Below are positions 30,473-46,442 of a stretch of 64,000 nucleotides of DNA, in pieces (positions within the stretch are counted from its first letter, which is position 1; each line of letters begins with the position of its first letter). Origin of the DNA: Thermoprotei archaeon (lineage in GTDB: Archaea > Thermoproteota > Thermoprotei > Thermoproteales > B15-G16); NCBI GenBank assembly GCA_003649205.1, contig QMRC01000002.1, positions 128,001 through 192,000 of the forward strand. The letters run 5' to 3'. The position numbers and the translations under genes were made by a program. The notes beneath the pieces were generated by a model that did not search any database, was not told the DNA's origin, and saw only the letters and a program-made list of their open reading frames with translations.

Positions 30473-31678
30473 TTAATCTCTCCCCAGAAAGTCAATAGCT
30501 TGCCTCACGTGTCGTGCTAAGTCATCGAGACCAAATACTATACTAAGCCGCTGTAGTCTTTCAAGCCACTCGACGTGATGTCTACTCGCCCGGAATTCAG
30601 CAAAATACTTCCTATACTTCTCTGAATGATAATAATGAACTCTTTCAGCTGGTACCTTAAGGAGGTTAACTGCTAGCTCTTTGAACGGCTCTACCTGTCC
30701 TAGTCCTACACATCTTACAATGACGTACTTCTTGCCACACTTCCTCCTAACTAAATATATTCTAACTCTCTCCTGAAGTAATTTTCTCAAGTCATCTCGA
30801 CTGAGCCCTACACCCTTGATAATCCTCAGTTTAGCATTTCGTCTTCTATGCCTCAACTCCATGAGATAGAGGAGACAGTTTTTGCGCATGTGCTCTATTG
30901 AGAATCTTATCCTGAAGTACCTACTTGGTCTCCAATTCTCTTTTATTTCACCTAGGGTGTAGTCTATGTACTTCATTTCTTTGAGTTTCTCTAAGACCTG
31001 TAGGATAGGTCGTAGCTTATGTTCACTACATCTAACGTAAATTGAGCAATGTACCCAGCCATGTTTATCCATGCGTACATTAACCGTGCCATCTCCGTCT
31101 ACTAGACCTGATAAGAATTCAGCAACTTCATAGTAGGTATTAGGAAAGCAAACAACTCCTCTTCTTAGGCAGGTCACGATAGTAGTAACTTCTGGATCTT
31201 TAACTCTTAGGTACAACATGGGTTTTACTTCGTGAGGTAACACGTGTATACATCCAAGTCTAACATAGAGTCTTGGGTATGTCTTCAGTAGTATTGCACA
31301 GAGCTCCTTGTCTGTACTAGCAAAGCGTATGTATGGTCCCAACACAGAACCATCGGTCAGTGCTAATCCCACTCTATACCATACGTTGCTCATTGAAGTA
31401 TTCTTTACAGTGATTTCCTCAACGAACTTACTGAATTCTCTCCTTAAGTACACTACCCTCTCATTGATGCAGTACCTAGCACTACGTGTCCTCGATCTAG
31501 CCACTATAACCAAAGAAGGTATATGTTTTATCTGCTCTCTCAGTTCTCTCGCTTTTTGCTTTAGTTGTTCTAGCTCTTCTTTGGTGAAGTATCTGTGTAT
31601 TAACTCCATTACTTTGCTATGTAGTTTCTCTACGAATTCATCTATTTCATCGTACTTGATGGTGATTCTCGATTTCAC
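30473..31678 (-). CDS. free-standing double-motif LAGLIDADG endonuclease-like protein
   Basis: VGLALTDGS and FLSGLVDGDG; basic composition; no intein termini. Confidence 0.8.
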   Translation of the reverse strand: MKSRITIKYDEIDEFVEKLHSKVMELIHRYFTKEELEQLKQKARELREQIKHIPSLVIVARSRTRSARYCINERVVYLRREFSKFVEEITVKNTSMSNVWYRVGLALTDGSVLGPYIRFASTDKELCAILLKTYPRLYVRLGCIHVLPHEVKPMLYLRVKDPEVTTIVTCLRRGVVCFPNTYYEVAEFLSGLVDGDGTVNVRMDKHGWVHCSIYVRCSEHKLRPILQVLEKLKEMKYIDYTLGEIKENWRPSRYFRIRFSIEHMRKNCLLYLMELRHRRRNAKLRIIKGVGLSRDDLRKLLQERVRIYLVRRKCGKKYVIVRCVGLGQVEPFKELAVNLLKVPAERVHYYHSEKYRKYFAEFRASRHHVEWLERLQRLSIVFGLDDLARHVRQAIDFLGRD

Positions 31679-33359: not shown

Positions 33360-34334
33360 TTAAGCTTTCCTGCATTGTTTCATCGACTCTATGATCTTGA
33401 CTACTTCTCTAGCGAGTTTGATCTTGGATTTTAGATCAGTCATTACTATGTTGCTTGTGATCACGTAGATTTCGAGTTCCTTACTTATCCTCTCGCCTAC
33501 TTCTCTATCTCTCACATCTACTACCATGGCGTCTACGTAGTCTCTAAGTATTTCAGCTACTGAGTAGCTCGATGGTTCGTAACCTATTGCTTTTAGGAAT
33601 TTATGGAGTGGTCCTGAGAATGGTCTATTACCTACTATTGGTGATATCGCTACTACAGGTACTTCACCGCGTAGCTCCTTTATCTTCTCACCTAGTCCCT
33701 GTACCTTCAGTATAGGTAGTATGCTATTTACCGTGTTACTTGGTCCTATGATTATGGCGTCTGCTTGTTCTAGTGCTGTGATTACGTCTCTTGTTACCTT
33801 TGCTTTCTCTAGTCCTAGGAATGTTATTCCGTGTACTTCAGGTTCCATTCTGTACTTGACTAAGTACTCCTGTATGTGGAGGTTACCTATGTTCGTGAGT
33901 ACGTAGGTTTCTACGTGGTTATCTGTTGCTGGTAGTACTGTGGCTCTGATACGTAGCTTACTTGCTAGGTACTTCGTTACCTGCGTTAGTGTGTACCCTC
34001 TCTTCATGAGTAGTGTCCTTGTAATGTGTGTTGCTAGGTCTCTATCACCGATGTTGAACCATGTCCAGTCTAGTCCGTACTGTTTTGCTTGTTGTAGGAA
34101 GTTGAAGGTGTCTTCTTTGATTCCCCAGTACTTACCTGTATCGAGGATGTTTGCGAAGAGGTATAGTACTGTATCTACGTCAGGTGCTATGTAGAGGTCA
34201 TTCCACCAGAAGTTATCTGCTACGTTGACTACGACAGTTATATCTTCTTCAGGGACGACATGTCTTAGACCTTCGAGTAGTTTGGGCGTTCCTGTTCCAC
34301 CGCTTAGAACTACGAGCTTCACCTTGATTCCCAC
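33360..34334 (-). CDS. cofD: 2-phospho-L-lactate transferase
   Basis: LSGGTGTPKLL, PDVDTVLY, WGIKEDTF, IGDRDLATH, IIGPSN. Confidence 0.95.
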   Translation of the reverse strand: MGIKVKLVVLSGGTGTPKLLEGLRHVVPEEDITVVVNVADNFWWNDLYIAPDVDTVLYLFANILDTGKYWGIKEDTFNFLQQAKQYGLDWTWFNIGDRDLATHITRTLLMKRGYTLTQVTKYLASKLRIRATVLPATDNHVETYVLTNIGNLHIQEYLVKYRMEPEVHGITFLGLEKAKVTRDVITALEQADAIIIGPSNTVNSILPILKVQGLGEKIKELRGEVPVVAISPIVGNRPFSGPLHKFLKAIGYEPSSYSVAEILRDYVDAMVVDVRDREVGERISKELEIYVITSNIVMTDLKSKIKLAREVVKIIESMKQCRKA

Positions 34335-34430: not shown

Positions 34431-35408
34431 ATGTGTTCTCAAGTCTCTATCTCTATCCTGGTTGAGCGTGGTCTATGTTCTAGCTGTGGTGCTTGTGCTG
34501 CAGTGTGTCCCTTCTCAGCTATTGAGTTTCCAGAGCCTTTCTCATTACCTAGGGTAATTGGTGATAAGTGTAGGTTGTGTGGTCTCTGCTATAGGATCTG
34601 TCCTCAGGTAGGTATTGTTGATGAGGTTAGGGGGAGAGAGGTTAAGCCGTTGGCTACGTACATGGCTAGGTCTACTCTAGCTGAGGTTAGGGGGGTTGCT
34701 CAGTGTGGTGGTGTTGTCACTACATTAGCTATGTACTTACTGGATAGGAGGTTCGTTGATGCTGTTGTGTCTGTTGGTAGGGATGAGTACTGGCGTCCAG
34801 TACCTAAGCTCATTACTGATAAGTTGGGGGTTCTCGAGGTAGCAGGTTCGAAGTATACCTACGTATCGGTTCTTACATTGTTGAGAGATGTCGTTAGAAG
34901 TGATGCTATTAGGTCGGTAGCTGTTATTGGTCTTCCCTGTCATATGAGAGCTATTGAGAAAATGAGGAGATTGAAGTTAGCTGCCTCTCAGAAAGTTAAG
35001 TACCTCATCAGCATCTTCTGCATGCACAACTTCGAATATGGTGTAGTGAAGTACATTGTTGAGAAGTTTGGTCTCGATATCAAGTCCATCTCTAAGATGG
35101 ATATAAAGAGGAGGTTCATAGTTAAGTTAGTGGATGGTAGGGTTCTCGAGGTACCTCTCAAGGAGTTAGATCAGTTCGTTAGAGCTTGCTGCCGTAGCTG
35201 TCCAGAGTTTGTCTCCACAATAGCAGATGTCTGTGTCGGTAGTGTAGGTGCTGAAGAAGGTTGGAGTACCGTATTCGTGATGTCTGAGAGAGGTAGAGGA
35301 ATTGTTGAAGATGCTGTGAGAGATCAATACCTTGAGGTTAAGGAGCTACCTGAAAAGGCCATGAAGATTGTGGCGAAGTTAATCAGTATGAAGGTTGGAA
35401 GTAGATAG
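34431..35408 (+). CDS. F420-binding FrhB/FdhB/FpoF-family protein with N-terminal 2x[4Fe-4S] domain
   Basis: CSSCGACAAVCP, CRLCGLCYRICP, GGVVT, AGSKY, GLPC, CRSC. Confidence 0.9.
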   Translation: MCSQVSISILVERGLCSSCGACAAVCPFSAIEFPEPFSLPRVIGDKCRLCGLCYRICPQVGIVDEVRGREVKPLATYMARSTLAEVRGVAQCGGVVTTLAMYLLDRRFVDAVVSVGRDEYWRPVPKLITDKLGVLEVAGSKYTYVSVLTLLRDVVRSDAIRSVAVIGLPCHMRAIEKMRRLKLAASQKVKYLISIFCMHNFEYGVVKYIVEKFGLDIKSISKMDIKRRFIVKLVDGRVLEVPLKELDQFVRACCRSCPEFVSTIADVCVGSVGAEEGWSTVFVMSERGRGIVEDAVRDQYLEVKELPEKAMKIVAKLISMKVGSR

Positions 35409-35468
35409 TAATAACTCAAGTAGCTAAACTTTATTTCCTGAACCAATGTCAGTTAGAGAGGGATCTAG

Positions 35469-37511
35469 TTGAGTAAGCCACTTCACGTCAAGATCGGTAA
35501 GCTCGAGTCCCCTCCCTTAGCTGCTGAGAACATTGATCTGGTCATCGGCTCTGTAGTTATTGAGGAGGAGTGGGAACCAACTGGTCCTGCTTCAAGACCT
35601 TCACTTCCAATGCTGAGGGCTTGGGATCTATTCCTCTTGAAGAGGTATGAACCTATGTACGTAGTTGAGAATAAGCTACAGCACGCAAAGACCTTACTCA
35701 CACTCACGGTATCCGGTGCATTAGCCTACCTAGCACTAGCTAAGAGAAGGCTTAGAGCTGCGTACCGTAGGTTAGGTGAGGATGCCCCAATTGAGTTAGG
35801 TGTTGCTGTTGAGGCTCCACTCACTAGGTTACTGATAGGTATTAGGCCAAAGGTATTGACTGAGCTTGAGGAGCCCCTGAGGTATGCTGAGGAGCAGATA
35901 GTCGAGATCAGTGCAGCTATCCACAGTAATCAGGAAGCTAGTATCGAGGACTTGGAGTCAAAGATGTTTCACATAGGTACAGCTACGCTACTGCTAACTG
36001 AGGTAGCTGAGATAGCTAATTTAATGCTAGTTCCGAAGGGTATTAAGGTACCTGAAAAGCTTGAGTTTGGAAAGGCACTCATTGACTTCACGAAACCTGT
36101 AGTACTTATCCTCGGTGATGTTCCTGAGGTAGTAGATGTTGTTGAGTACTGTGAGAGAAGTGGGTATATCGATAAGATCGAGATCGTGACTGGTGGATGC
36201 TATGCACTAGACACCGTTAGGGTTGGTAAGTACTTGGTTAAGGTCGTTGGTACGCTCGATGACGTTAGGGATGTTGTCGGTAGAGGACTTGTGGACGTAC
36301 TCATCGTTGGTGAGCAAGGTGCTATACCAGACATAGTTGAGAAAGCCAAGGAGAAGGGTACTGTGGTGATTACGACAACAGAGAGAGCTTACCTAGGTCT
36401 ACCAGACCTTACAGGTGTGGATACTGAGAAGATAGTTGAAGCTGTTAAATCAGGTACAGTGAGGGGATTTGCTGTCTTGGATGCACAGAAGTTAGCTGAG
36501 GTAGTACCTAGAGTAGCACTGGTAGTTTATGAAGCTAGAAAGGAAGTGAAGCCTAAAGCTCTTGAGGAGGTAAAGGAGGTCTTTAGCAGGGAGAAGTACG
36601 TAATGAAGCCACCACTCGGACCTGTTCCTGAACCTGTTATCAGGGATCTAGGTGTTCCTGTCGTGATGGGTACTATACCTGGTATAATAGCTGTTGTTGG
36701 ATGTAGTAACTATGGACCTAGCTCACTTGAGGAACTTGGTGAGATCCTTGAGGAGCTGTGTAAGAGGAACTTCCTAATCCTCACGACAGGCTGTACAGCA
36801 ATAGCACTGTCCAAGTACAGGACTAAGGAGGCAGGTCACGGGCTTTACGAGGACTTCCCAGATCAGACATTGGTGATGGGATCTCCAACAGCTATAGCAC
36901 ACATAGCTGGACTCGCACTCAAGGTACCACAGATCTTCGCTAGAATGCCGCTTAGATCAAATGCACCTGCACTAGTCGACTACCTACTTAATAGAGTTGG
37001 TGCTGTTGGTCTAGCATGGTCAGCACCGCTCGAGAGGGATGCAGCAATTGCATGGGGCGTACTAAGGTGTGGTGTACCAGTTGTTGCTGGTCCAGCACTA
37101 GCACCTGTTGGTAGGTTATTCCTTGGTGATCCAACTAAGCCAGAGAAGTACGTGATATACGACAAGAGGACGAAGAAGAAGGTATTCGTTGGACCAGTAC
37201 CTGAGCACCTACTGTGTCTAGCTAAGAACAAGGACGAAGCACTGATACTGATAACTAAGCTAGTTATGAGGGCTAACGATGGTCACAGCGCTAGGGCTAT
37301 CAAGGCATGTCACTACGTCGACATGTACAGGAAAGTACATGGAACACTACCACCAGACCTACCGAACTACATCAGAGCTGAAGCAGACATAGCGATAACG
37401 GTCAAGGACGAGGTCATGAAGTTCCTACAGGAGAAGGGCTGGAAACCACTAGAGGAACCATTGGTAGACCCAACGTGTCTACCGCTACTCCAAGAAATAA
37501 CAAGTTTATAA
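35469..37511 (+). CDS. cdhA: degenerate archaeal CO dehydrogenase alpha subunit (ACDS alpha)
   Basis: EEEWEPTGP, VVMGTIPGIIAVVGC, DYLLNRVGAVGLAW, GPVPEHL, DPT conserved; cluster motifs missing. Confidence 0.9.
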   Translation: MSKPLHVKIGKLESPPLAAENIDLVIGSVVIEEEWEPTGPASRPSLPMLRAWDLFLLKRYEPMYVVENKLQHAKTLLTLTVSGALAYLALAKRRLRAAYRRLGEDAPIELGVAVEAPLTRLLIGIRPKVLTELEEPLRYAEEQIVEISAAIHSNQEASIEDLESKMFHIGTATLLLTEVAEIANLMLVPKGIKVPEKLEFGKALIDFTKPVVLILGDVPEVVDVVEYCERSGYIDKIEIVTGGCYALDTVRVGKYLVKVVGTLDDVRDVVGRGLVDVLIVGEQGAIPDIVEKAKEKGTVVITTTERAYLGLPDLTGVDTEKIVEAVKSGTVRGFAVLDAQKLAEVVPRVALVVYEARKEVKPKALEEVKEVFSREKYVMKPPLGPVPEPVIRDLGVPVVMGTIPGIIAVVGCSNYGPSSLEELGEILEELCKRNFLILTTGCTAIALSKYRTKEAGHGLYEDFPDQTLVMGSPTAIAHIAGLALKVPQIFARMPLRSNAPALVDYLLNRVGAVGLAWSAPLERDAAIAWGVLRCGVPVVAGPALAPVGRLFLGDPTKPEKYVIYDKRTKKKVFVGPVPEHLLCLAKNKDEALILITKLVMRANDGHSARAIKACHYVDMYRKVHGTLPPDLPNYIRAEADIAITVKDEVMKFLQEKGWKPLEEPLVDPTCLPLLQEITSL

Positions 37512-37588
37512 GTCTCGAAGCAAGAGATTATGAAGGTGATTTACCTATCTCCAAACAACTATATAGTTGGTTAGGGTGATGTGTAGCT

Positions 37589-39010
37589 ATGTCCTCTAGC
37601 ATAGTACCCGGATTTCCCGTCGACATTGGACCTGCGTACGAGGGTCAGAGAATTAGGAGACCAGACATGTACGTTGAGTTCGGTGGACCCAAGATAGCTC
37701 AGAAGTTCGAGCTACTAAGGGTTAAGAAGTTGGAAGAGGTTGAGGATGAGAAGGTTGAGGTTATTGGACCTGACCTACCTGAGCTGAAAGAGGGTGAGAG
37801 CTATCCAATCGGTATAGTCATTGAGGTAGCTGGTGCAAAGCTCACACCTGAACTAGAGGGTGTTCTCGAGAGGAGAATTCACGACTTCCTAAACTACATC
37901 GACGGTGTCATGCACGTAGGTTCGAGAGCAGACATTTGGATTAGGATAAGTAAGAAGGCATACAGTAAAGGTCTCAATACACTGAAGCTAATTGGTCTAG
38001 CTCTGATCAAGCTATTCAAGAAGACCTTCCCAATGATTGAGAAAGCACAGGTAAAGTTCATAACAGATCTTGAGAAGGTTAAGGAGTACCTAAGTGAGGC
38101 AATGAAGGTTTACGAGGAGAGAGATAAGAGGGCACTAGCTCTAACAGATGAGGAGGTAGATACATTCTACGGCTGTATCCTATGCCAGTCCTTCGCTCCT
38201 GGTCATGTCTGCATAATAACTCCTGAAAGACCATCAGCATGCGGTGCTGTGTCCTGGTTTGATGCTAGAGCAGCAGCCATGATCGATCCCAAGGGACCAA
38301 TATTCCCAGTACCTAAAGGTAAGTGTCTGGATCCAGTTAAGGGAGAGTACGAAGGTGTTAACGAGAAGGTTAAGGAGAAGTCACTTGGGAATGTAGAGAA
38401 GGTGTACCTATACAGCATGTTCGACTATCCAATGACATCCTGTGGTTGCTTCGAAGCAGTAGCATTCTACATACCTGAGGTCGATGGTATAGGTATAGTC
38501 CATAGAGGATTTAGAGGTAAGACACCTATTGGACTAACGTTTGGTCAGTTAGCAGAGCAGGTCGGTGGTGGTAGACAGGTAAGTGGCTTCCTAGGCATAT
38601 CGATACTGTACATGAGGTCCAGGAAGTTCCTAATAGCTGATGGTGGATGGAAGAGAGTTGTGTGGCTACCGAGCGAGCTTAAGGAGAAGCTAAAGGATGT
38701 GATACCACCAGATCTCTACGATAAGATAGCTACTGAGAAAGATGTATCAACTGTTGAGGAGCTAAAGAAGTGGTTGATCGAGAAAGGTCACCCAGTAGCA
38801 GAGAAGCTAAAGGCTGCTGAAGCAGCACCCCCAGCTGCACCACCTGCCGCACCTCCCGCACCTGCCGCTCCAGCTCCTGCACCAGCACCGCCAACAGCGG
38901 TTACGGTACCAGCAGCGGCACCAGCAGCACCACAGGTACCCATTAGGATAGTGCTGCACAATGCTAGGATATACATCAAGAGAGTAGTTGTTGTGAAGAA
39001 GGGTACCTAG
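37589..39010 (+). CDS. cdhC: acetyl-CoA synthase (ACDS beta)
   Basis: FYGCILCQSFAPGHVC, CGA, TSCGCFE; Pro/Ala linker and C-terminal beta peptide. Confidence 0.97.
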   Translation: MSSSIVPGFPVDIGPAYEGQRIRRPDMYVEFGGPKIAQKFELLRVKKLEEVEDEKVEVIGPDLPELKEGESYPIGIVIEVAGAKLTPELEGVLERRIHDFLNYIDGVMHVGSRADIWIRISKKAYSKGLNTLKLIGLALIKLFKKTFPMIEKAQVKFITDLEKVKEYLSEAMKVYEERDKRALALTDEEVDTFYGCILCQSFAPGHVCIITPERPSACGAVSWFDARAAAMIDPKGPIFPVPKGKCLDPVKGEYEGVNEKVKEKSLGNVEKVYLYSMFDYPMTSCGCFEAVAFYIPEVDGIGIVHRGFRGKTPIGLTFGQLAEQVGGGRQVSGFLGISILYMRSRKFLIADGGWKRVVWLPSELKEKLKDVIPPDLYDKIATEKDVSTVEELKKWLIEKGHPVAEKLKAAEAAPPAAPPAAPPAPAAPAPAPAPPTAVTVPAAAPAAPQVPIRIVLHNARIYIKRVVVVKKGT

Positions 39011-39021
39011 GGTGTTCATTC

Positions 39022-39240
39022 ATGAGTACGAGACAGGAGGGGAAGAGGAGTACTGAGCAAGGTAGTGAACTAGGTACTGATCTCCTCAACTTCCTCCTTT
39101 CTCTTGTTGGTTTAGGAGCTACTGTTGAACTTCACGGTGTGACGATAACAGCTGAGAAGGTTGTCATAACGAGAATTGAGGGGAGTGGTAGTGAGTCAGG
39201 AGAGAAGGGTAAGGGAAGAGAGGAGAGAAGCAGAAGCTAG
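39022..39240 (+). CDS. small protein resembling the CdhD N-terminal / CdhC C-terminal peptide
   Basis: DLLNFLLSLVG..TVELHGVTITAEKVVI; ATG 11 bp after the cdhC stop. Confidence 0.65.
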   Translation: MSTRQEGKRSTEQGSELGTDLLNFLLSLVGLGATVELHGVTITAEKVVITRIEGSGSESGEKGKGREERSRS

Positions 39241-40561
39241 GAAGGTTGTTGCGGATTTACTCAAGCTACTGAGTACAGCTGATAGACTAGAGTTCGAAGA
39301 CGTTGTGATTGATGCTAGGGAGCTAACTATCGAGTTCATACCCCCATCAGCTCCAACAGGTCCAACGTACCTGAAGCTAACCGTTGAGCCGGTTGGTGTA
39401 CCACAGCCACCAGGTGGTAAGCTAGAGTTCATCCTTGAGGTAACTCCAACAGGCTTTAGATTACTCACACCACCAGTACCTGGTGCTGTACCTATTACAG
39501 TACCGCCCATAGCTGCTGTCCCTAAGCTTGTTGAGTTTATTAAGGTGGAGTACAAGTACCCAAGTCTTGAGTTCAAGGGGTCAATTGCCGAGGTCAAGAT
39601 AGGTGCTACGAAAGCTGAAGGTGGTACGAGATCTACAGTTATTAAGATTGGTGGTGACAATAAGCCCCCTATCTTCAGGTTCCTAGGTTACGTAGTTAAT
39701 AGACCGAAGGTAGCACTAGACGTATTCGATACAACTATCCCACTACCTAGAGCTGTGAGAGATGCGTACGGTGATGTTCTCTCAAATCCCTATGAGTGGG
39801 CAAAGAAGTGTATCAACGTGGTTAAGGCAGATCTAATATCGTTTCACCTAGTCAGTACTGACCCCGGTATCAAAGATGTATCACCACAAGAAGCAGCTAA
39901 AGAGGTTGAGCAGATGCTCCAGACAATAGACATTCCATTCATTGTCGGTGGTTGTGGTAATCCAGTTAAGGACCTAGAGACCTTCGCGAAGGTAGCTGAG
40001 GTAGCTGCTAACGAGAGACTCGTACTGGCATCAGTTACCTTCGGTATGAATATACCTAAGTACGTTGAGGTTGTTAAGAAGTTCAATCACGTAGCACTAG
40101 CCCTCATATTCATGGATGTGACTCAGGCTAAAGCCATATGTCGTAGGTTGATGGATCTAGGTCTCAGCAAGGATAGGATAATTCTCGACCCGACAACGGC
40201 TGCATTAGGGTATGGTACAGAGTACTCCTTTAGTGCAGCTGAGAGAATTAGGTTAGCTGCTCTTAGAGGTGACGAGGATCTACAGGTACCAATGAGCTGT
40301 GCCGCGACAAATGCTTGGGCTGCTAGAGAGGCGTGGATGAAGCTAGATGCGTGGGGTCCAAGGGAGTGGAGAGGTCCTCTCTGGGAAGCTGTTACAGCTA
40401 TGACGATGTTGCTTGCTGGTGCGGATCTCTTCATGATGATGCATCCACTAGCAGCGTCCATAGTTAAGTCTGTTACTGAGTTCATGGAGAAGCAGACGGT
40501 TAGGGATGTTATTGAGAAGGAGGTTTCTGAGTACTATAGCTGGGTGACTAAGAGGTATTGA
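39176..40561 (+). CDS. cdhD: corrinoid Fe-S protein small subunit (ACDS delta); start probably near 39191
   Basis: IGATKAEGGTR, HLVSTDP, DPTTAALGYG, TNAWAAREAW, RGPLWE, MMMHP. Confidence 0.95.
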   Translation: MRGVVVSQERRVREERREAEARKVVADLLKLLSTADRLEFEDVVIDARELTIEFIPPSAPTGPTYLKLTVEPVGVPQPPGGKLEFILEVTPTGFRLLTPPVPGAVPITVPPIAAVPKLVEFIKVEYKYPSLEFKGSIAEVKIGATKAEGGTRSTVIKIGGDNKPPIFRFLGYVVNRPKVALDVFDTTIPLPRAVRDAYGDVLSNPYEWAKKCINVVKADLISFHLVSTDPGIKDVSPQEAAKEVEQMLQTIDIPFIVGGCGNPVKDLETFAKVAEVAANERLVLASVTFGMNIPKYVEVVKKFNHVALALIFMDVTQAKAICRRLMDLGLSKDRIILDPTTAALGYGTEYSFSAAERIRLAALRGDEDLQVPMSCAATNAWAAREAWMKLDAWGPREWRGPLWEAVTAMTMLLAGADLFMMMHPLAASIVKSVTEFMEKQTVRDVIEKEVSEYYSWVTKRY

Positions 40562-42796: not shown

Positions 42797-43795
42797 CTAG
42801 CTCCTTAACTTCTTGACTATTTCACCGATTAGTGCAAGAGCTTCTTTCTTCTTCGGACCTAGTGGTGATCCCATTACAATGTGAGTTATTCCAGCCTTGA
42901 TTAACTCTCTAAGTTTCTCAATGCACTCATCTGGTGAGCCTGAAATTGAGAAGTAGTCTAGCATTAAGTCATCTACGTTCTCAGCAGCTTTCTTGAAGTC
43001 TCCCTTAGCTAGTGCTTCTCTGATAGTGCTTACCTTACCTAGATCTATTCCTCGTTCCTTCAGTAATGTATCTGGTGCTCCTGCAACTATGAACGCTACT
43101 ACTAGTCTAGCTGCATCCTTTGCCTTCTTTGAATCTGGTGCTACTGAGAAGCAGGTATACGCTACAATGTCTATCTTGCTGAAGTCCTTTCCAGCTGCTT
43201 CAGCACCCTTCTTAATTAGTGGTATTGCCTTCTCGAAGTCCTTGGGGTGTGATGCGTTTATCAGTACTCCATCACCTAGTTGACCAGCTAGCTGAAGCAT
43301 CTTAGGTGCTTGGGCACCTATGTAAATTGGTATTGCTCTACTTGGCTTGAAGTTTAGTCTTGCTCCCTTAAGCTTGAAGAACTCACCTTCGAAGTTAACT
43401 ACTTCACCAGCAAGTAATCTCCTAATGACTGTCACAGCTTCTCTAACAGCTGTTAGTGGTTTCTTCCTCTCAATACCAATAGCTTCGAGTGTTGCCTTAT
43501 CACCTGAACCTATACCGAGAATAGCTCTTCCACCACTAACCTCATCTAGTGTAGCTACTGCAGCAGCTGTCCAAGCTGGGTGAATAACATATGGGTTTGT
43601 AACACCTACACCTAGAGTTATTTTACTTGTCTTGATAGCCATCATGGTTAATGCGATGTAGACAGTACGGTTGCAGTAGTGATCTGTTACCCATATACTA
43701 TCTAGGCCATTCTGCTCGGCAATGATTGCATACTCGACTAATGTTGAAATAGCTCTATCAGGAACCAGCTCTATACCGAACTTCAAGTTAACCAC
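42797..43795 (-). CDS. mer: F420-dependent methylene-H4MPT reductase
   Basis: KFGIELVP, WVTDHY, GVTNPY, IYIGAQAPKML, DGVLINASHPKD, GSPLGP. Confidence 0.88.
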   Translation of the reverse strand: MVNLKFGIELVPDRAISTLVEYAIIAEQNGLDSIWVTDHYCNRTVYIALTMMAIKTSKITLGVGVTNPYVIHPAWTAAAVATLDEVSGGRAILGIGSGDKATLEAIGIERKKPLTAVREAVTVIRRLLAGEVVNFEGEFFKLKGARLNFKPSRAIPIYIGAQAPKMLQLAGQLGDGVLINASHPKDFEKAIPLIKKGAEAAGKDFSKIDIVAYTCFSVAPDSKKAKDAARLVVAFIVAGAPDTLLKERGIDLGKVSTIREALAKGDFKKAAENVDDLMLDYFSISGSPDECIEKLRELIKAGITHIVMGSPLGPKKKEALALIGEIVKKLRS

Positions 43796-44087: not shown

Positions 44088-44870
44088 TTGGTGATCTCCA
44101 TGGGTGAAGTACCTAAGGTAGAGATAATTGGGTTACTCGACTTTCCCGATGTTAAGCCAGGTGATGACCTTGGAAAGCTAATTGTCGAGGTTGCTAGGAG
44201 AAACGGTATTGAGTTCATGGATGGTGATGTAATTGTTATCGCTCAGAAGATTGTCTCTAAGTCCGAGGGTAGAATAGTTGATCTGCAGACCGTTAAACCG
44301 TCTGAGTATGCAGTGAAGTTGGGTGAGGAACTAGGTAAGGACCCTAGATTAGTTGAGGTGGTGCTTAGGGAATCTCATGAGGTTTTGAAGGCTGAGGCAG
44401 GGCACTTGATCTCGCTGACAAGACATGGATTCGTATGTGCTAATGCTGGTGTTGATCTATCTAATGTAGATGGTAGTGGGTTAAGAGTAACGTTACTACC
44501 TGTAAATCCGGATGAGTCAGCTAGGAGAATTAGGGAGAGAATTAAGGAGTTGACTGGTAGGGATGTTGCTGTTGTCATAACAGATACCTTCGGTAGACCA
44601 TTTCGTGAAGGTGTTGTGAATTTTGCAATAGGTATATCCGGTATCCATCCATTTCGTGACTACATAGGTAAGGTAGATAGGTACGGATACGTAATGAGAG
44701 TGACTAAGGTCTGCATCGTTGATGAGGTAGCTGCAGCGGCGGAGCTAGTTATGGGACAAGGTGCTGAGGGTATTCCAGTTGTAGTAATTAGAGGGCTCAG
44801 GTACGAGAGAAGGGATGACGCAAGTATTCAGGAAGTTGTTATGCGTAAGGAGAAGTGGTTATTCAGGTAA
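44088..44870 (+). CDS. cofE: coenzyme F420-0:L-glutamate ligase
   Basis: KIVSKSEG, CANAGVDLSN, ITDTFGRPFR, DEVAAAAELVMG. Confidence 0.95.
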   Translation: MVISMGEVPKVEIIGLLDFPDVKPGDDLGKLIVEVARRNGIEFMDGDVIVIAQKIVSKSEGRIVDLQTVKPSEYAVKLGEELGKDPRLVEVVLRESHEVLKAEAGHLISLTRHGFVCANAGVDLSNVDGSGLRVTLLPVNPDESARRIRERIKELTGRDVAVVITDTFGRPFREGVVNFAIGISGIHPFRDYIGKVDRYGYVMRVTKVCIVDEVAAAAELVMGQGAEGIPVVVIRGLRYERRDDASIQEVVMRKEKWLFR

Positions 44871-45032: not shown

Positions 45033-46442
45033 GTGATGTTAATGAGTAGCAAATCCGCAGAGAAGAGTCCTATCTACTACCTCTTCAACCCTCGTAGCAT
45101 TGCCGTGATAGGTGCTTCTCGTGATCCCAAGAAGATAGGTTATCAGATTCTCAAGAACATCATTGAGTATGGATTTAAGGGAAAGGTCTATCCAGTCAAC
45201 CCGAAAGCTGATGAGATTCTCGGACTAAAGTGCTACAAATCCATTCTCGATATACCTGATGAAGTTGATGTCGCTGTCATATCGATACCTGCTCAGTACG
45301 TATTACCTGTTGTTGAGGAATGTGGTAAGAAAGGTGTTAAGGCTCTAATAGTGATATCCTCTGGCTTTGGTGAGGTAGGTAATGTCGAGCTTGAGAGAAA
45401 GCTAGTTGAGACAGCTAGGAAGTACGGAATGAGGATACTTGGACCCAATATCTTCGGTCTCTACTACGGACCTGCTAGGTTGAACGCAACCTTTGGTCCT
45501 AAGGAGGTTATTCCAGGTAACATAGCATTTGTCTCACAGAGTGGTGCTCTAGGTATAGCACTCATGGGGTGGACCATTGCAAAGGGCGTAGCTCTCTCAG
45601 CTGTTGTCAGCATGGGTAACAAGGCAGATATAGATGATGCAGATGTCCTTGAGTACTTCGAAACTGATCCTAACACCAAGGTCATACTCATATACATGGA
45701 GGGTATTAGACCAGGTCTCGGTAGGAGGTTTGTTGAAGTGGCTAGGAGAGTATCTAAGAAGAAGCCAATCATAGTTATCAAGGCTGGTAGAACAGAGAGA
45801 GGTGCTGCTGCAGCAGCGTCGCACACTGGTGCGCTTGCAGGAGCAGATGCAATATACAATGCGGCATTTAAGCAAGCAGGTGTGCTCAGAGCGATAGGTT
45901 TTGAAGAAGCATTTGATTGGGCTAAAGCACTGAGCATGCTACCACCACCTAAGGGTGAGAACGCAGTAATCATAACGAATGGTGGTGGTGCTGGGGTAAT
46001 GGCTACTGATGCAGCTGTTGAGTGCGGTATTCGATTAATGGAGATGCCACCAGATCTACAGGAGAGGTTCAGGAAGTACATGCCACCATTCGGGAGCCCG
46101 AAGAACCCAATAGACTTGACAGGTCAAGCAAGTGAAGAGGCGTACAAAGGTGCTCTCCTAGAAGCATTCAATGAACCTAGAATTCACTCCATAATACTAC
46201 TGTACTGTCAGACAGCAATTACAGATCCAGAGGTGCTTGCTGATAAGATAATTGAGGCTTGGAATGAAGCTAAGGAGAGAAAGCCTATGGTAGTCTCATT
46301 CATTGGTGGAATTGAGTGTGATAGAGCTATGGCGAAACTAGATAAGGCTGGTATCCCAGCATACCCATCTCCAGAGAGAGCTGTTAGTGCTCTCAGTGCT
46401 GTCTATAAGTGGGCTAGATGGGCAGGTTACGTGAAGGAGTAA
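45033..46442 (+). CDS. acdA: ADP-forming acetyl-CoA synthetase alpha subunit
   Basis: IAVIGAS, YPVNP, ILGPN, SQSGA, SHTGALAG, NPIDLTG. Confidence 0.95.
   Translation: MMLMSSKSAEKSPIYYLFNPRSIAVIGASRDPKKIGYQILKNIIEYGFKGKVYPVNPKADEILGLKCYKSILDIPDEVDVAVISIPAQYVLPVVEECGKKGVKALIVISSGFGEVGNVELERKLVETARKYGMRILGPNIFGLYYGPARLNATFGPKEVIPGNIAFVSQSGALGIALMGWTIAKGVALSAVVSMGNKADIDDADVLEYFETDPNTKVILIYMEGIRPGLGRRFVEVARRVSKKKPIIVIKAGRTERGAAAAASHTGALAGADAIYNAAFKQAGVLRAIGFEEAFDWAKALSMLPPPKGENAVIITNGGGAGVMATDAAVECGIRLMEMPPDLQERFRKYMPPFGSPKNPIDLTGQASEEAYKGALLEAFNEPRIHSIILLYCQTAITDPEVLADKIIEAWNEAKERKPMVVSFIGGIECDRAMAKLDKAGIPAYPSPERAVSALSAVYKWARWAGYVKE

Follow-up and report, generated by a model that had tools for sequence, protein, structure and literature searches.

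The alpha-subunit position of an acetyl-CoA decarbonylase/synthase (ACDS) operon in a Thermoprotei archaeon is occupied by a CdhA-type gene that has lost much of the metal-binding apparatus of carbon monoxide dehydrogenase (CODH) and is maintained by purifying selection. The gene lies in the 64,000-nucleotide stretch analyzed here, the window (contig QMRC01000002.1, positions 128,001 to 192,000, of assembly GCA_003649205.1). It is referred to as cdhA* and its product, protein P0001, as alpha*; the clade is the group P0001–P0009, and alpha2 is a second CdhA-type paralog of the same genome. Loss of canonical CODH chemistry appears to be the only reasonable reading of alpha*, since the ligands of clusters B, D, E, and F are missing and the presumed Ni-binding Cys is gone. 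Alpha* may serve as a CODH-inactive partner that docks or tethers acetyl-CoA synthase (ACS), with catalysis by alpha2, a reading that we regard as evenly poised between right and wrong. The evidence comes from metagenome-assembled genomes only; the genome of the window (G000) is 93.8% complete with 4.2% contamination, and a second genome of the same genus (G001) is 71% complete.

An uninterrupted CdhA frame of 680 residues had been claimed in an earlier sequence-only reading of the window. The frame is indeed open throughout, and its product matches the prismane/CODH family PF03063 with 98 bits against a cut-off of 27. The closest PDB chain by sequence is 8riu_A (1.5e-112), the alpha subunit of the F420-reducing CODH of Ca. 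Ethanoperedens. The cdhA equivalog model TIGR00314 scored 531.7 bits in three pieces, under its cut-off of 781.3, so that alpha* does not qualify as a catalytic alpha subunit by this model. The AlphaFold2 model of alpha*, built on alignment A1, has a mean predicted local distance difference test score (pLDDT) of 87.6 and a predicted template modeling (TM) score of 0.87, and it superposes on 9c0r_A, 8riu_A, and 3cf4_A with a TM-score of 0.86. Alpha* is a member of the PF03063 superfamily with a CdhA-type fold. Compared with its ortholog on an independent contig of the same genus (L009; 94% amino acid identity), cdhA* has a Nei-Gojobori ratio of nonsynonymous to synonymous substitution rates (dN/dS) of 0.107; the corresponding values for its neighbors against their same-genus orthologs are 0.150 (frhB-like gene), 0.043 (cdhC), and 0.090 (partial cdhD). 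The gene is maintained by purifying selection. A gene that has lost its catalytic residues and yet is selected and conserved in several species fits the definition of a pseudoenzyme, with inactivity as the probable consequence.

When alpha* was aligned with 8riu_A, two holes appeared, as chain residues 63–93 and 388–469 have no counterpart. In alignments with canonical CdhA, the first hole coincides with the N-terminal Cys segment, which in this family carries clusters B and D. In this region alpha* has no Cys and keeps 0 of the 14 conserved canonical columns. The second hole was identified in the same way as the eight-Cys ferredoxin insert of clusters E and F. Here too alpha* has no Cys and keeps 0 of 14 conserved columns, and the pLDDT falls to 63–77 at the linker that replaces the insert. 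Deletion of the B/D segment and disappearance of the internal CxxCxxC ferredoxin motifs had both been noticed from the sequence, as had the reading GALAYLALA at the canonical 'His-rich helix' (residues 83–91), and all three observations are borne out.

The states of the six C-cluster positions (one His and five Cys) were taken from alignments A1, A3, and A5 and from a column-by-column ligand table. Three of the six are kept (C244, C412, and C442), giving the pattern (-/D, C, G, C, C, P); this count takes the second Cys of the canonical CC pair and leaves aside which member of the pair is the true Fe ligand. The first Cys of the pair is Gly in alpha*. Thus, the earlier description was accurate both for the motifs that lost their ligand (GHN, with Asp217 at or beside the His position, EQC, with G284, and GSC, with P473) and for those that kept their Cys (GGC, VGC, and TGC). 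The GSC Cys is presumably the Ni ligand. Alpha* contains nine Cys in total, and only C244, C412, and C442 are invariant in the clade; there is no other conserved Cys that could replace the lost ones. The substituted residues D217, G243, Y245, G281, G284, P473, and T474 are also invariant, at 44%–54% identity within the clade, and H478 and K485 are conserved. The site may still hold a metal because the three kept Cys are the sole invariant Cys of the clade. The earlier proposal of a 'redox-dead scaffold' exceeds the data, as the invariant C244, C412, and C442 allow a remodeled metal site.

Relatives of alpha* were sought in a word-indexed search of 5.8 billion proteins, which gave 53 matches at E ≤ 1e-10 among 8000 candidates scored. 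The nine clade proteins among these matches are 635–683 residues long, and the other eight are 44%–54% identical to the window protein over at least 95% coverage. The ligand pattern and both deletions are identical in 9/9 members, and the mean column identity across the nine proteins is 68%. When the nine were combined into a profile and compared with 1.84 billion cluster representatives, P0007 and P0001 scored above 1100 bits; the next match, a canonical CdhA, reached 528.7 bits. In both phylogenetic trees, from which fragments under 560 residues and near-duplicates of canonical CdhA were left out, the nine form one clade with a Shimodaira-Hasegawa-like approximate likelihood ratio test (SH-aLRT) value of 100, and the window protein is sister to the remaining eight. 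The stem of the clade measures 0.56 under LG+G4 (47 rows) and 0.78 under the mixture model (33 rows).

The cluster-less form is rare. Only G000 and G001 carry alpha* among 41 genomes of relatives of the window's archaeon. A sample of 401 genomes from the phylum includes 95 in which CdhA is matched at E ≤ 1e-60, and a match in a single piece occurs in G000 only (1107 bits); the next best match (336.6 bits) covers the C-terminal part only. In a collection of species-representative genomes, 82 pattern matches yielded 3 confirmed loci, and in a metagenome collection 508 yielded 7. Several other CdhA-like proteins are degenerate in different ways: P0049/P0058 lost all six C-cluster positions and kept four N-terminal Cys, P0062 and P0066 have neither the B/D segment nor the ferredoxin insert but retain the final four Cys, and in P0088 and P0104 the His position is Asp and the CC pair is missing. 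As these lineages are independently degenerate, non-catalytic CODH relatives may be a neglected class.

In the window, the operon runs on one strand in the order zeta-alpha*-beta-delta-gamma-cooC, with successive gaps of 60, 77, 165, 16, and 2 bp, and alpha* is an operon member together with cdhC, cdhD, and cdhE (Table 1). Its placement in the alpha slot recurs on the same-genus contig L009 and on two other contigs. The ACS subunits keep their Cys ligands, as had also been stated: the A-cluster Cys of CdhC (C196, C199, C208, C218, C285, and C287) are invariant in alignment A4, and CdhE has the N-terminal motif CxxCx4Cx16C. The zeta-like protein at the head of the operon matches 8riu_B, the zeta subunit of the F420-reducing CODH (2.4e-40), and 8rja_E, FwdI (8.1e-47). 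No CooC-specific model scored on the P-loop ATPase at its end, which is named CooC-like for its operon position. There is no cdhB between cdhA* and cdhC, and the epsilon subunit (CdhB, PF02552) was not found in the draft genomes G000 or G001. PF02552 is present in 4/5 other genomes searched (G020, G022, G028, and G410).

Table 1. Operon genes and alpha* sites in the window (positions in nucleotides from the first letter of the window)
Feature	Position	Strand	Basis
Zeta-like F420 reductase (FrhB/FpoF type, N-terminal 2x[4Fe-4S] ferredoxin domain), 325 aa	34431..35408	+	PF04432, PF04422, Fer4
cdhA*, cluster-less CdhA paralog, 680 aa	35469..37511	+	open frame, TTG start, profile and structure matches
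V65-V66 junction; canonical ~25-residue B/D Cys segment missing	35661..35666	+	alignments A1, A5
Asp217, in the place of the missing C-cluster His or adjoining it (GHN reads G-D), clade-invariant	36117..36119	+	alignment-dependent position
Cys244 (GGCYA), second Cys of the canonical CC pair kept, clade-invariant	36198..36200	+	ligand table
Gly284 in place of the DEQC Cys	36318..36320	+	ligand table
Short linker, ~residues 365–372, replacing the ~80-residue, 8-Cys ferredoxin insert	36561..36584	+	alignment
Cys412 (VGCS), C-cluster ligand position kept, clade-invariant	36702..36704	+	ligand table
Cys442 (TGCTA), C-cluster ligand position kept, clade-invariant	36792..36794	+	ligand table
Pro473 in place of the GSC Cys; S472-P473-T474 clade-invariant	36885..36887	+	ligand table
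cdhC (ACS beta), 473 aa, C-terminal Pro/Ala-rich linker and terminal segment	37589..39010	+	TIGR00316, 640.5 bits vs 356
cdhD (delta), 461 aa	39176..40561	+	TIGR00381, 389 bits vs cut-off 253
cdhE (gamma, corrinoid Fe-S protein large subunit), 476 aa	40578..42008	+	NF003195, 538 bits vs 306
CooC/AcsF-like P-loop ATPase, 258 aa	42011..42787	+	PF01656, PF10609

The surroundings of alpha* in other genomes are of two types, a 'replacement' type (the window's genus, L079, and L080) and an 'accessory' type (G411 and G410). L009 repeats the operon order of the window up to a partial cdhD at the contig end. On the metagenome contig L079, cdhC begins 24 bp past the gene for a clade member of 683 residues (53% identical) and encodes a CdhC 69% identical to that of the window, and on the metagenome contig L080 the cdhC start lies 28 bp after alpha*, with a CooC-like gene upstream on the opposite strand. 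For two of the top CdhC matches and for P0003 and P0005, the longest contigs are equal in size (24215 and 30912), which fits adjacency and is no proof of it. In G411 (L011), alpha* stands directly upstream of a canonical cdhA-cdhB-cdhC-cooC-cdhD set. In G410 (L010) and on L081, it stands apart from ACS genes, behind a gene for a DUF2250 winged helix-turn-helix protein, and G410 has a canonical cdhA, scoring over the TIGR00314 cut-off, and a cdhC elsewhere. The DUF2250 genes (L010:7215-7823 and L081:3027-3632) are on the same strand as the alpha* gene that follows, and a heavy-metal P-type ATPase gene, a universal stress protein (Usp) gene, and a TrmB regulator gene near G410-type alpha* hint at a regulatory setting in that subclade. 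On L083, the genes upstream of alpha* are unrelated. No zeta-like gene was found in the 437 bases upstream of alpha* on L079 or beside alpha* on L010 and L083; its placement upstream of alpha* is confined to the window's genus. The zeta-like F420-reductase gene, the missing epsilon subunit, and the accessory and stand-alone contexts of the clade had all escaped the sequence-only reading.

Nor could that reading take account of a candidate CODH that the genome has outside the window. The alpha2 gene lies ~65 kb downstream (L002:1444-3519, also given as G000:C2:229526-231412), is unlinked to the operon, and encodes a CdhA-type protein of 691 residues. It keeps all six C-cluster positions, four Cys in the B/D segment, and nine Cys in a shortened ferredoxin region, and is a divergent protein (TIGR00314 222.5 bits; 3cf4_A 8.4e-55). 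G001 also has alpha2. The hypD gene (PF01924, 1.9e-134; L002:360-1517), which belongs to [NiFe]-hydrogenase maturation, directly precedes and overlaps alpha2 and is an unusual neighbor for a CODH gene.

Alpha* and alpha2 were compared over 236 columns conserved at ≥90% across 40 canonical CdhA. Members of the alpha* clade keep 100 of these columns, the other 136 being changed or deleted. In the N-terminal extension, alpha* keeps 14/16 columns and alpha2 4/16; in the C-terminal domain, 24/37 and 13/37. In contrast, alpha2 keeps 6/14 columns of the B/D segment and 8/14 of the ferredoxin insert, from which alpha* keeps none. Alpha* thus appears to retain the ACS-contacting parts of CdhA and to have lost the electron-moving parts, and alpha2 the reverse.

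These parts have been located in archaeal complexes. According to Zimmer et al. 2026 (PMC13370988), the CdhA-CdhC interface consists mainly of the CdhA C-terminal domain with CdhC A2 and of Rossmann domain 2 with A3, a cross-link between CdhA E15 and CdhC K452 joins the CdhA N-terminus to the CdhC C-terminus, and Rossmann domain 2 of archaeal CdhA plays the part of the A1 domain of bacterial AcsB. The conserved N-terminal extension of alpha was proposed by Lemaire et al. 2024 (PMC11493965) to stabilize beta. On the docking reading, alpha*, a presumably CODH-inactive paralog in the alpha slot of the ACDS operon, would stand in for Rossmann domain 2 of a real CdhA or for the cluster-less A1 domain of AcsB. 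It would dock CdhC in the 'closed', CO-accepting state, or tether CdhC in the complex, and might act as a cap or tunnel for CO. Interconversion of CO2 and CO would be left to the unlinked, ligand-complete alpha2, so that docking and catalysis would be split between paralogs. The fuller picture of an ACDS without an integrated CODH, in which alpha* is a non-catalytic adaptor with a remodeled three-Cys metal site ending the former CO tunnel, and the CODH is unlinked and epsilon-less, is tentative, and we would sooner expect it to fail in some part than to hold as a whole.

Several points weigh against a docking role for alpha* with alpha2 as the catalyst. Binding of CdhC by alpha* is something that we infer from the sequences, and alpha2, being divergent, is the working CODH by presumption only. 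The missing cdhB and canonical cdhA are 'not found' and not proven absent because G000 is a draft genome. CO diffusing freely from an unlinked CODH would forfeit the channeling that is thought to be typical of such complexes. When conservation was normalized to that within canonical CdhA, Rossmann domain 2 (0.57) and the C-terminal domain (0.62) did not differ from Rossmann domain 1 (0.60) in a way that sets them apart; only the N-terminal extension stands out (0.76), and the proposed docking half is not preferentially conserved. ACS docking cannot be the sole context of alpha* because G410-type copies stand alone. Finally, the remodeled loops GD.P, GGCYA.D, VGE.G, and GSPT are invariant in the clade, and these frozen loops and the invariant Cys seem to fit an occupied site better than an empty scaffold. 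A complex prediction for CdhC residues 8–405 (alignment A4) with alpha* residues 100–680 (alignment A2), run without controls, scored 0.04 and 0.00, where the mark to reach was 0.32, and was counted neither way.

The frozen site leads to a serious alternative, though one that we consider less likely than the docking role, namely that the remodeled pocket (Cys244, Cys412, Cys442, Asp217, and perhaps Glu282/His478) binds a different metal center and supports a new activity. The center could be a three-Cys Fe-S cluster or a hybrid-type cluster as in hybrid cluster protein (HCP) and CooS-V, and the activity could be gas or redox sensing, maturation of the CdhC Ni site or cluster, or another reaction, perhaps with the zeta-like F420 reductase as redox partner. 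If the site were merely dead, its residues should drift, as they did in P0049/P0058, but in the clade both the three kept Cys and the substituted residues are invariant. There is also a precedent: as cited in the 2026 marine survey (PMC13240472), CooS-V has an altered ligand, another cluster, and no CO oxidation, and PDB entry 7b7q is among the fold matches of alpha*. The zeta-like gene lies only 60 bp upstream and is under selection, and one clade member stands beside regulators. However, alpha* has no electron path left to the site. The known anchor of zeta at alpha/epsilon and its electron source in the ferredoxin insert are both missing here, the zeta-like gene accompanies alpha* in the window's genus only, and the three Cys may be invariant simply as structural remnants in a densely packed core.

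Less probable still, alpha* could regulate the real CODH or compete with it for the CdhA face of CdhC, thereby gating ACS, or could be an assembly chaperone; in the window's genus it would then have outlasted the loss of canonical cdhAB. Such a role suits G411, where alpha* directly precedes a complete canonical set, and G410, which also has a canonical cdhA. On L079 and L080 and in the window's genus, however, no canonical alpha was found adjoining alpha*, which leaves nothing to compete with, and the single operon on one strand with small gaps suggests stoichiometric co-expression with CdhC. A working CODH with shifted or unconventional ligands is very improbable. The three kept positions, Asp217, H478, and K485 and the CooC-like ATPase retained in the operon are what it can call upon, but the GSC Cys, the presumed Ni ligand, is Pro in 9/9 members, the B/D segment and E/F insert are absent, no other conserved Cys offers a substitute, and the TIGR00314 score is under the cut-off. 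An incipient pseudogene or an assembly artifact, to which the massive loss of functional residues and the metagenomic source might point, is the most improbable of all, as 680 codons are open, the dN/dS of cdhA* lies within the range of its neighbors, the nine-member clade is well conserved, the same gene and order occur on the independent same-genus contig, and the gene is also found in metagenome contigs; the low dN/dS and the confident CdhA-like fold model led us to reject both.

The origin of alpha* was considered in the light of relatives of the same order. In G022 and G028, the operon reads zeta-alpha-cdhC-cdhD-cdhE-cooC without epsilon, and a canonical cdhA-cdhB pair is located elsewhere in both genomes. 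The operon alpha of these genomes (764–766 residues; L077:6148-8448, minus strand, and L078:3794-6088, plus strand) evolves fast, with a stem of 1.25 substitutions per site. Its C-cluster His is replaced by Glu and its CC pair reads SC, the other Cys and the insert are kept, and its B/D segment has four Cys vs six in most canonical CdhA. Throughout the order, then, constraint on the alpha position of this operon seems to have loosened or shifted in genomes that possess another CODH. A possible link between alpha* and P0057 showed in the LG+G4 tree (SH-aLRT 93, with long branches). In the mixture-model tree, there was no such link, and alpha* did not group with the operon alphas of the order. 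Placing alpha* and six copies from the order in one clade was rejected by the approximately unbiased test (p 0.0146), with the group named post hoc and the branches long. The CdhC of the window is 55%–59% identical to those of order relatives, 52%–55% to those of G410/G411, 69% to that of L079, and 60%–66% to many of Thermoproteota type, and CdhC identity does not tell the origins apart. Displacement of the original alpha is somewhat more likely than decay in place.

Among known systems, canonical CdhA (3CF4 of M. barkeri, 9C0Q-T of M. thermophila, and 8RIU of Ca. Ethanoperedens) resembles alpha* in fold (TM 0.86 at 28%–32% identity) and in operon partners. Unlike canonical CdhA, alpha* has neither the B/D segment nor the insert and has lost 3/6 C-cluster positions, and no epsilon was found in its genome. 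As in the F420-reducing alpha2-epsilon2-zeta2 CODH of Ca. Ethanoperedens thermophilum, an FrhB-type reductase gene is part of the window's ACDS operon. In the solved complex (Lemaire et al. 2024, PMC11493965), zeta is anchored at the alpha/epsilon junction and wired to the C-cluster via the cluster of the alpha ferredoxin insert. This wiring cannot exist in the window's operon, where there is no ferredoxin insert, no epsilon, and no C-cluster Ni ligand. In addition, the zeta-like protein has 325 residues vs 370 in the solved zeta and lacks the C-terminal extension to which a dimerizing role is given in the same paper (PMC11493965).

Groups A-4 and A-6 of Inoue et al. 2019 (PMC6344411) are clade-A proteins with incomplete C-cluster signatures that are clustered with ACS, like alpha*. 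Their signatures are (D,P,C,C,C,C) and (N,S,C,C,C,C), their E/F motifs are kept (the F motif being incomplete in A-6), and they are reported there in bacteria only (PMC6344411). In contrast to these groups, which by the filter of that study have no deletions in the B, C, or D regions, alpha* is archaeal and is without both the B/D segment and the E/F insert. The study removed sequences with D-, B-, or C-region deletions (PMC6344411), a step that alpha* would not have passed, and the 2026 marine survey (PMC13240472) likewise reports removal of sequences with deletions or changed ligands.

Functionally, alpha* may also be likened to the A1 ('prismane') domain of AcsB, a cluster-less domain of the CODH/prismane fold by which ACS is held against its source of CO. 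Residues 317–541 of P0001 match positions 52–255, the N-terminal part, of the AcsB-type model NF040764. However, A1 is a domain fused within ACS, whereas alpha* is a separate full-length CdhA-type protein. CooS-V/clade D and hybrid cluster protein share with alpha* the altered ligands and have, according to PMC13240472 and 10.1101/2025.09.14.676152, another cluster and no CO/CO2 activity. Unlike these proteins, which are of CooS type, keep the B/D clusters and most ligands, and are not linked to ACS, alpha* is Cdh-type, ACS-linked, and without the electron relay. No description of a cluster-less, ACS-linked CdhA was found in the literature searched, in agreement with the earlier suggestion that the architecture is undescribed; the search extended to passages of PMC13240472, PMC6344411, PMC9586279, PMC13370988, PMC11493965, PMC4543118, PMC10469681, and 10.1101/2025.09.14.676152, and the tunnel-residue figure in Lemaire 2024 and the tables in Inoue 2019 could also be relevant. 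None of the systems compared combines loss of the relay motifs, loss of half of the C-cluster ligands, and retention in an ACS operon.

CODH/ACS is one of the oldest carbon-fixing machines, in which CO made at the C-cluster is channeled inside the protein to the A-cluster. An alpha subunit of an ACS operon that is probably unable to make CO and is selected in several lineages would be a natural experiment that separates the partner role of alpha from its enzyme role, and, if the docking reading is true, direct evidence that alpha has a structural role apart from its catalytic one. The case has a practical consequence as well. Annotation by profiles or in the manner of KEGG gives alpha* the name cdhA, as happened to P0007 and P0008 in one source, and metabolic reconstructions then credit a complete carbonyl branch on the basis of the wrong gene, whereas surveys that filter by ligands silently drop alpha*.

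The operon is embedded in an F420/acetate island, with cofD (33360-34334, minus strand) on one side and mer (42797-43795, minus strand), cofE (44088-44870, plus strand), and the alpha subunit of ADP-forming acetyl-CoA synthetase (45033-46442, plus strand) on the other. This arrangement fits conversion of ACS-made acetyl-CoA to acetate with formation of ATP. Ftr, Mch, and Mer, of the tetrahydromethanopterin (H4MPT) methyl branch, are present in the genome and McrA was not found in it; the genome therefore looks non-methanogenic, with the H4MPT methyl branch feeding ACS. A scan with bacterial promoter and terminator models, which are ill-suited to archaea, gave no more sites than in shuffled sequences. 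Eight sequencing runs were listed for 34431-40561, none of them with RNA, a result that says nothing about expression either way. Just upstream of cofD, two overlapping genes encode a nucleotidyltransferase (PF01909; 32442-32897, minus strand) and a HEPN protein (PF05168; 32882-33265, minus strand), the usual make-up of a HEPN-MNT toxin-antitoxin module. Farther upstream, an open reading frame of 401 residues (30473-31678, minus strand) weakly resembles LAGLIDADG proteins (PF14528, 1.4e-6, no single stretch passing alone) and may encode a relative of homing endonucleases.

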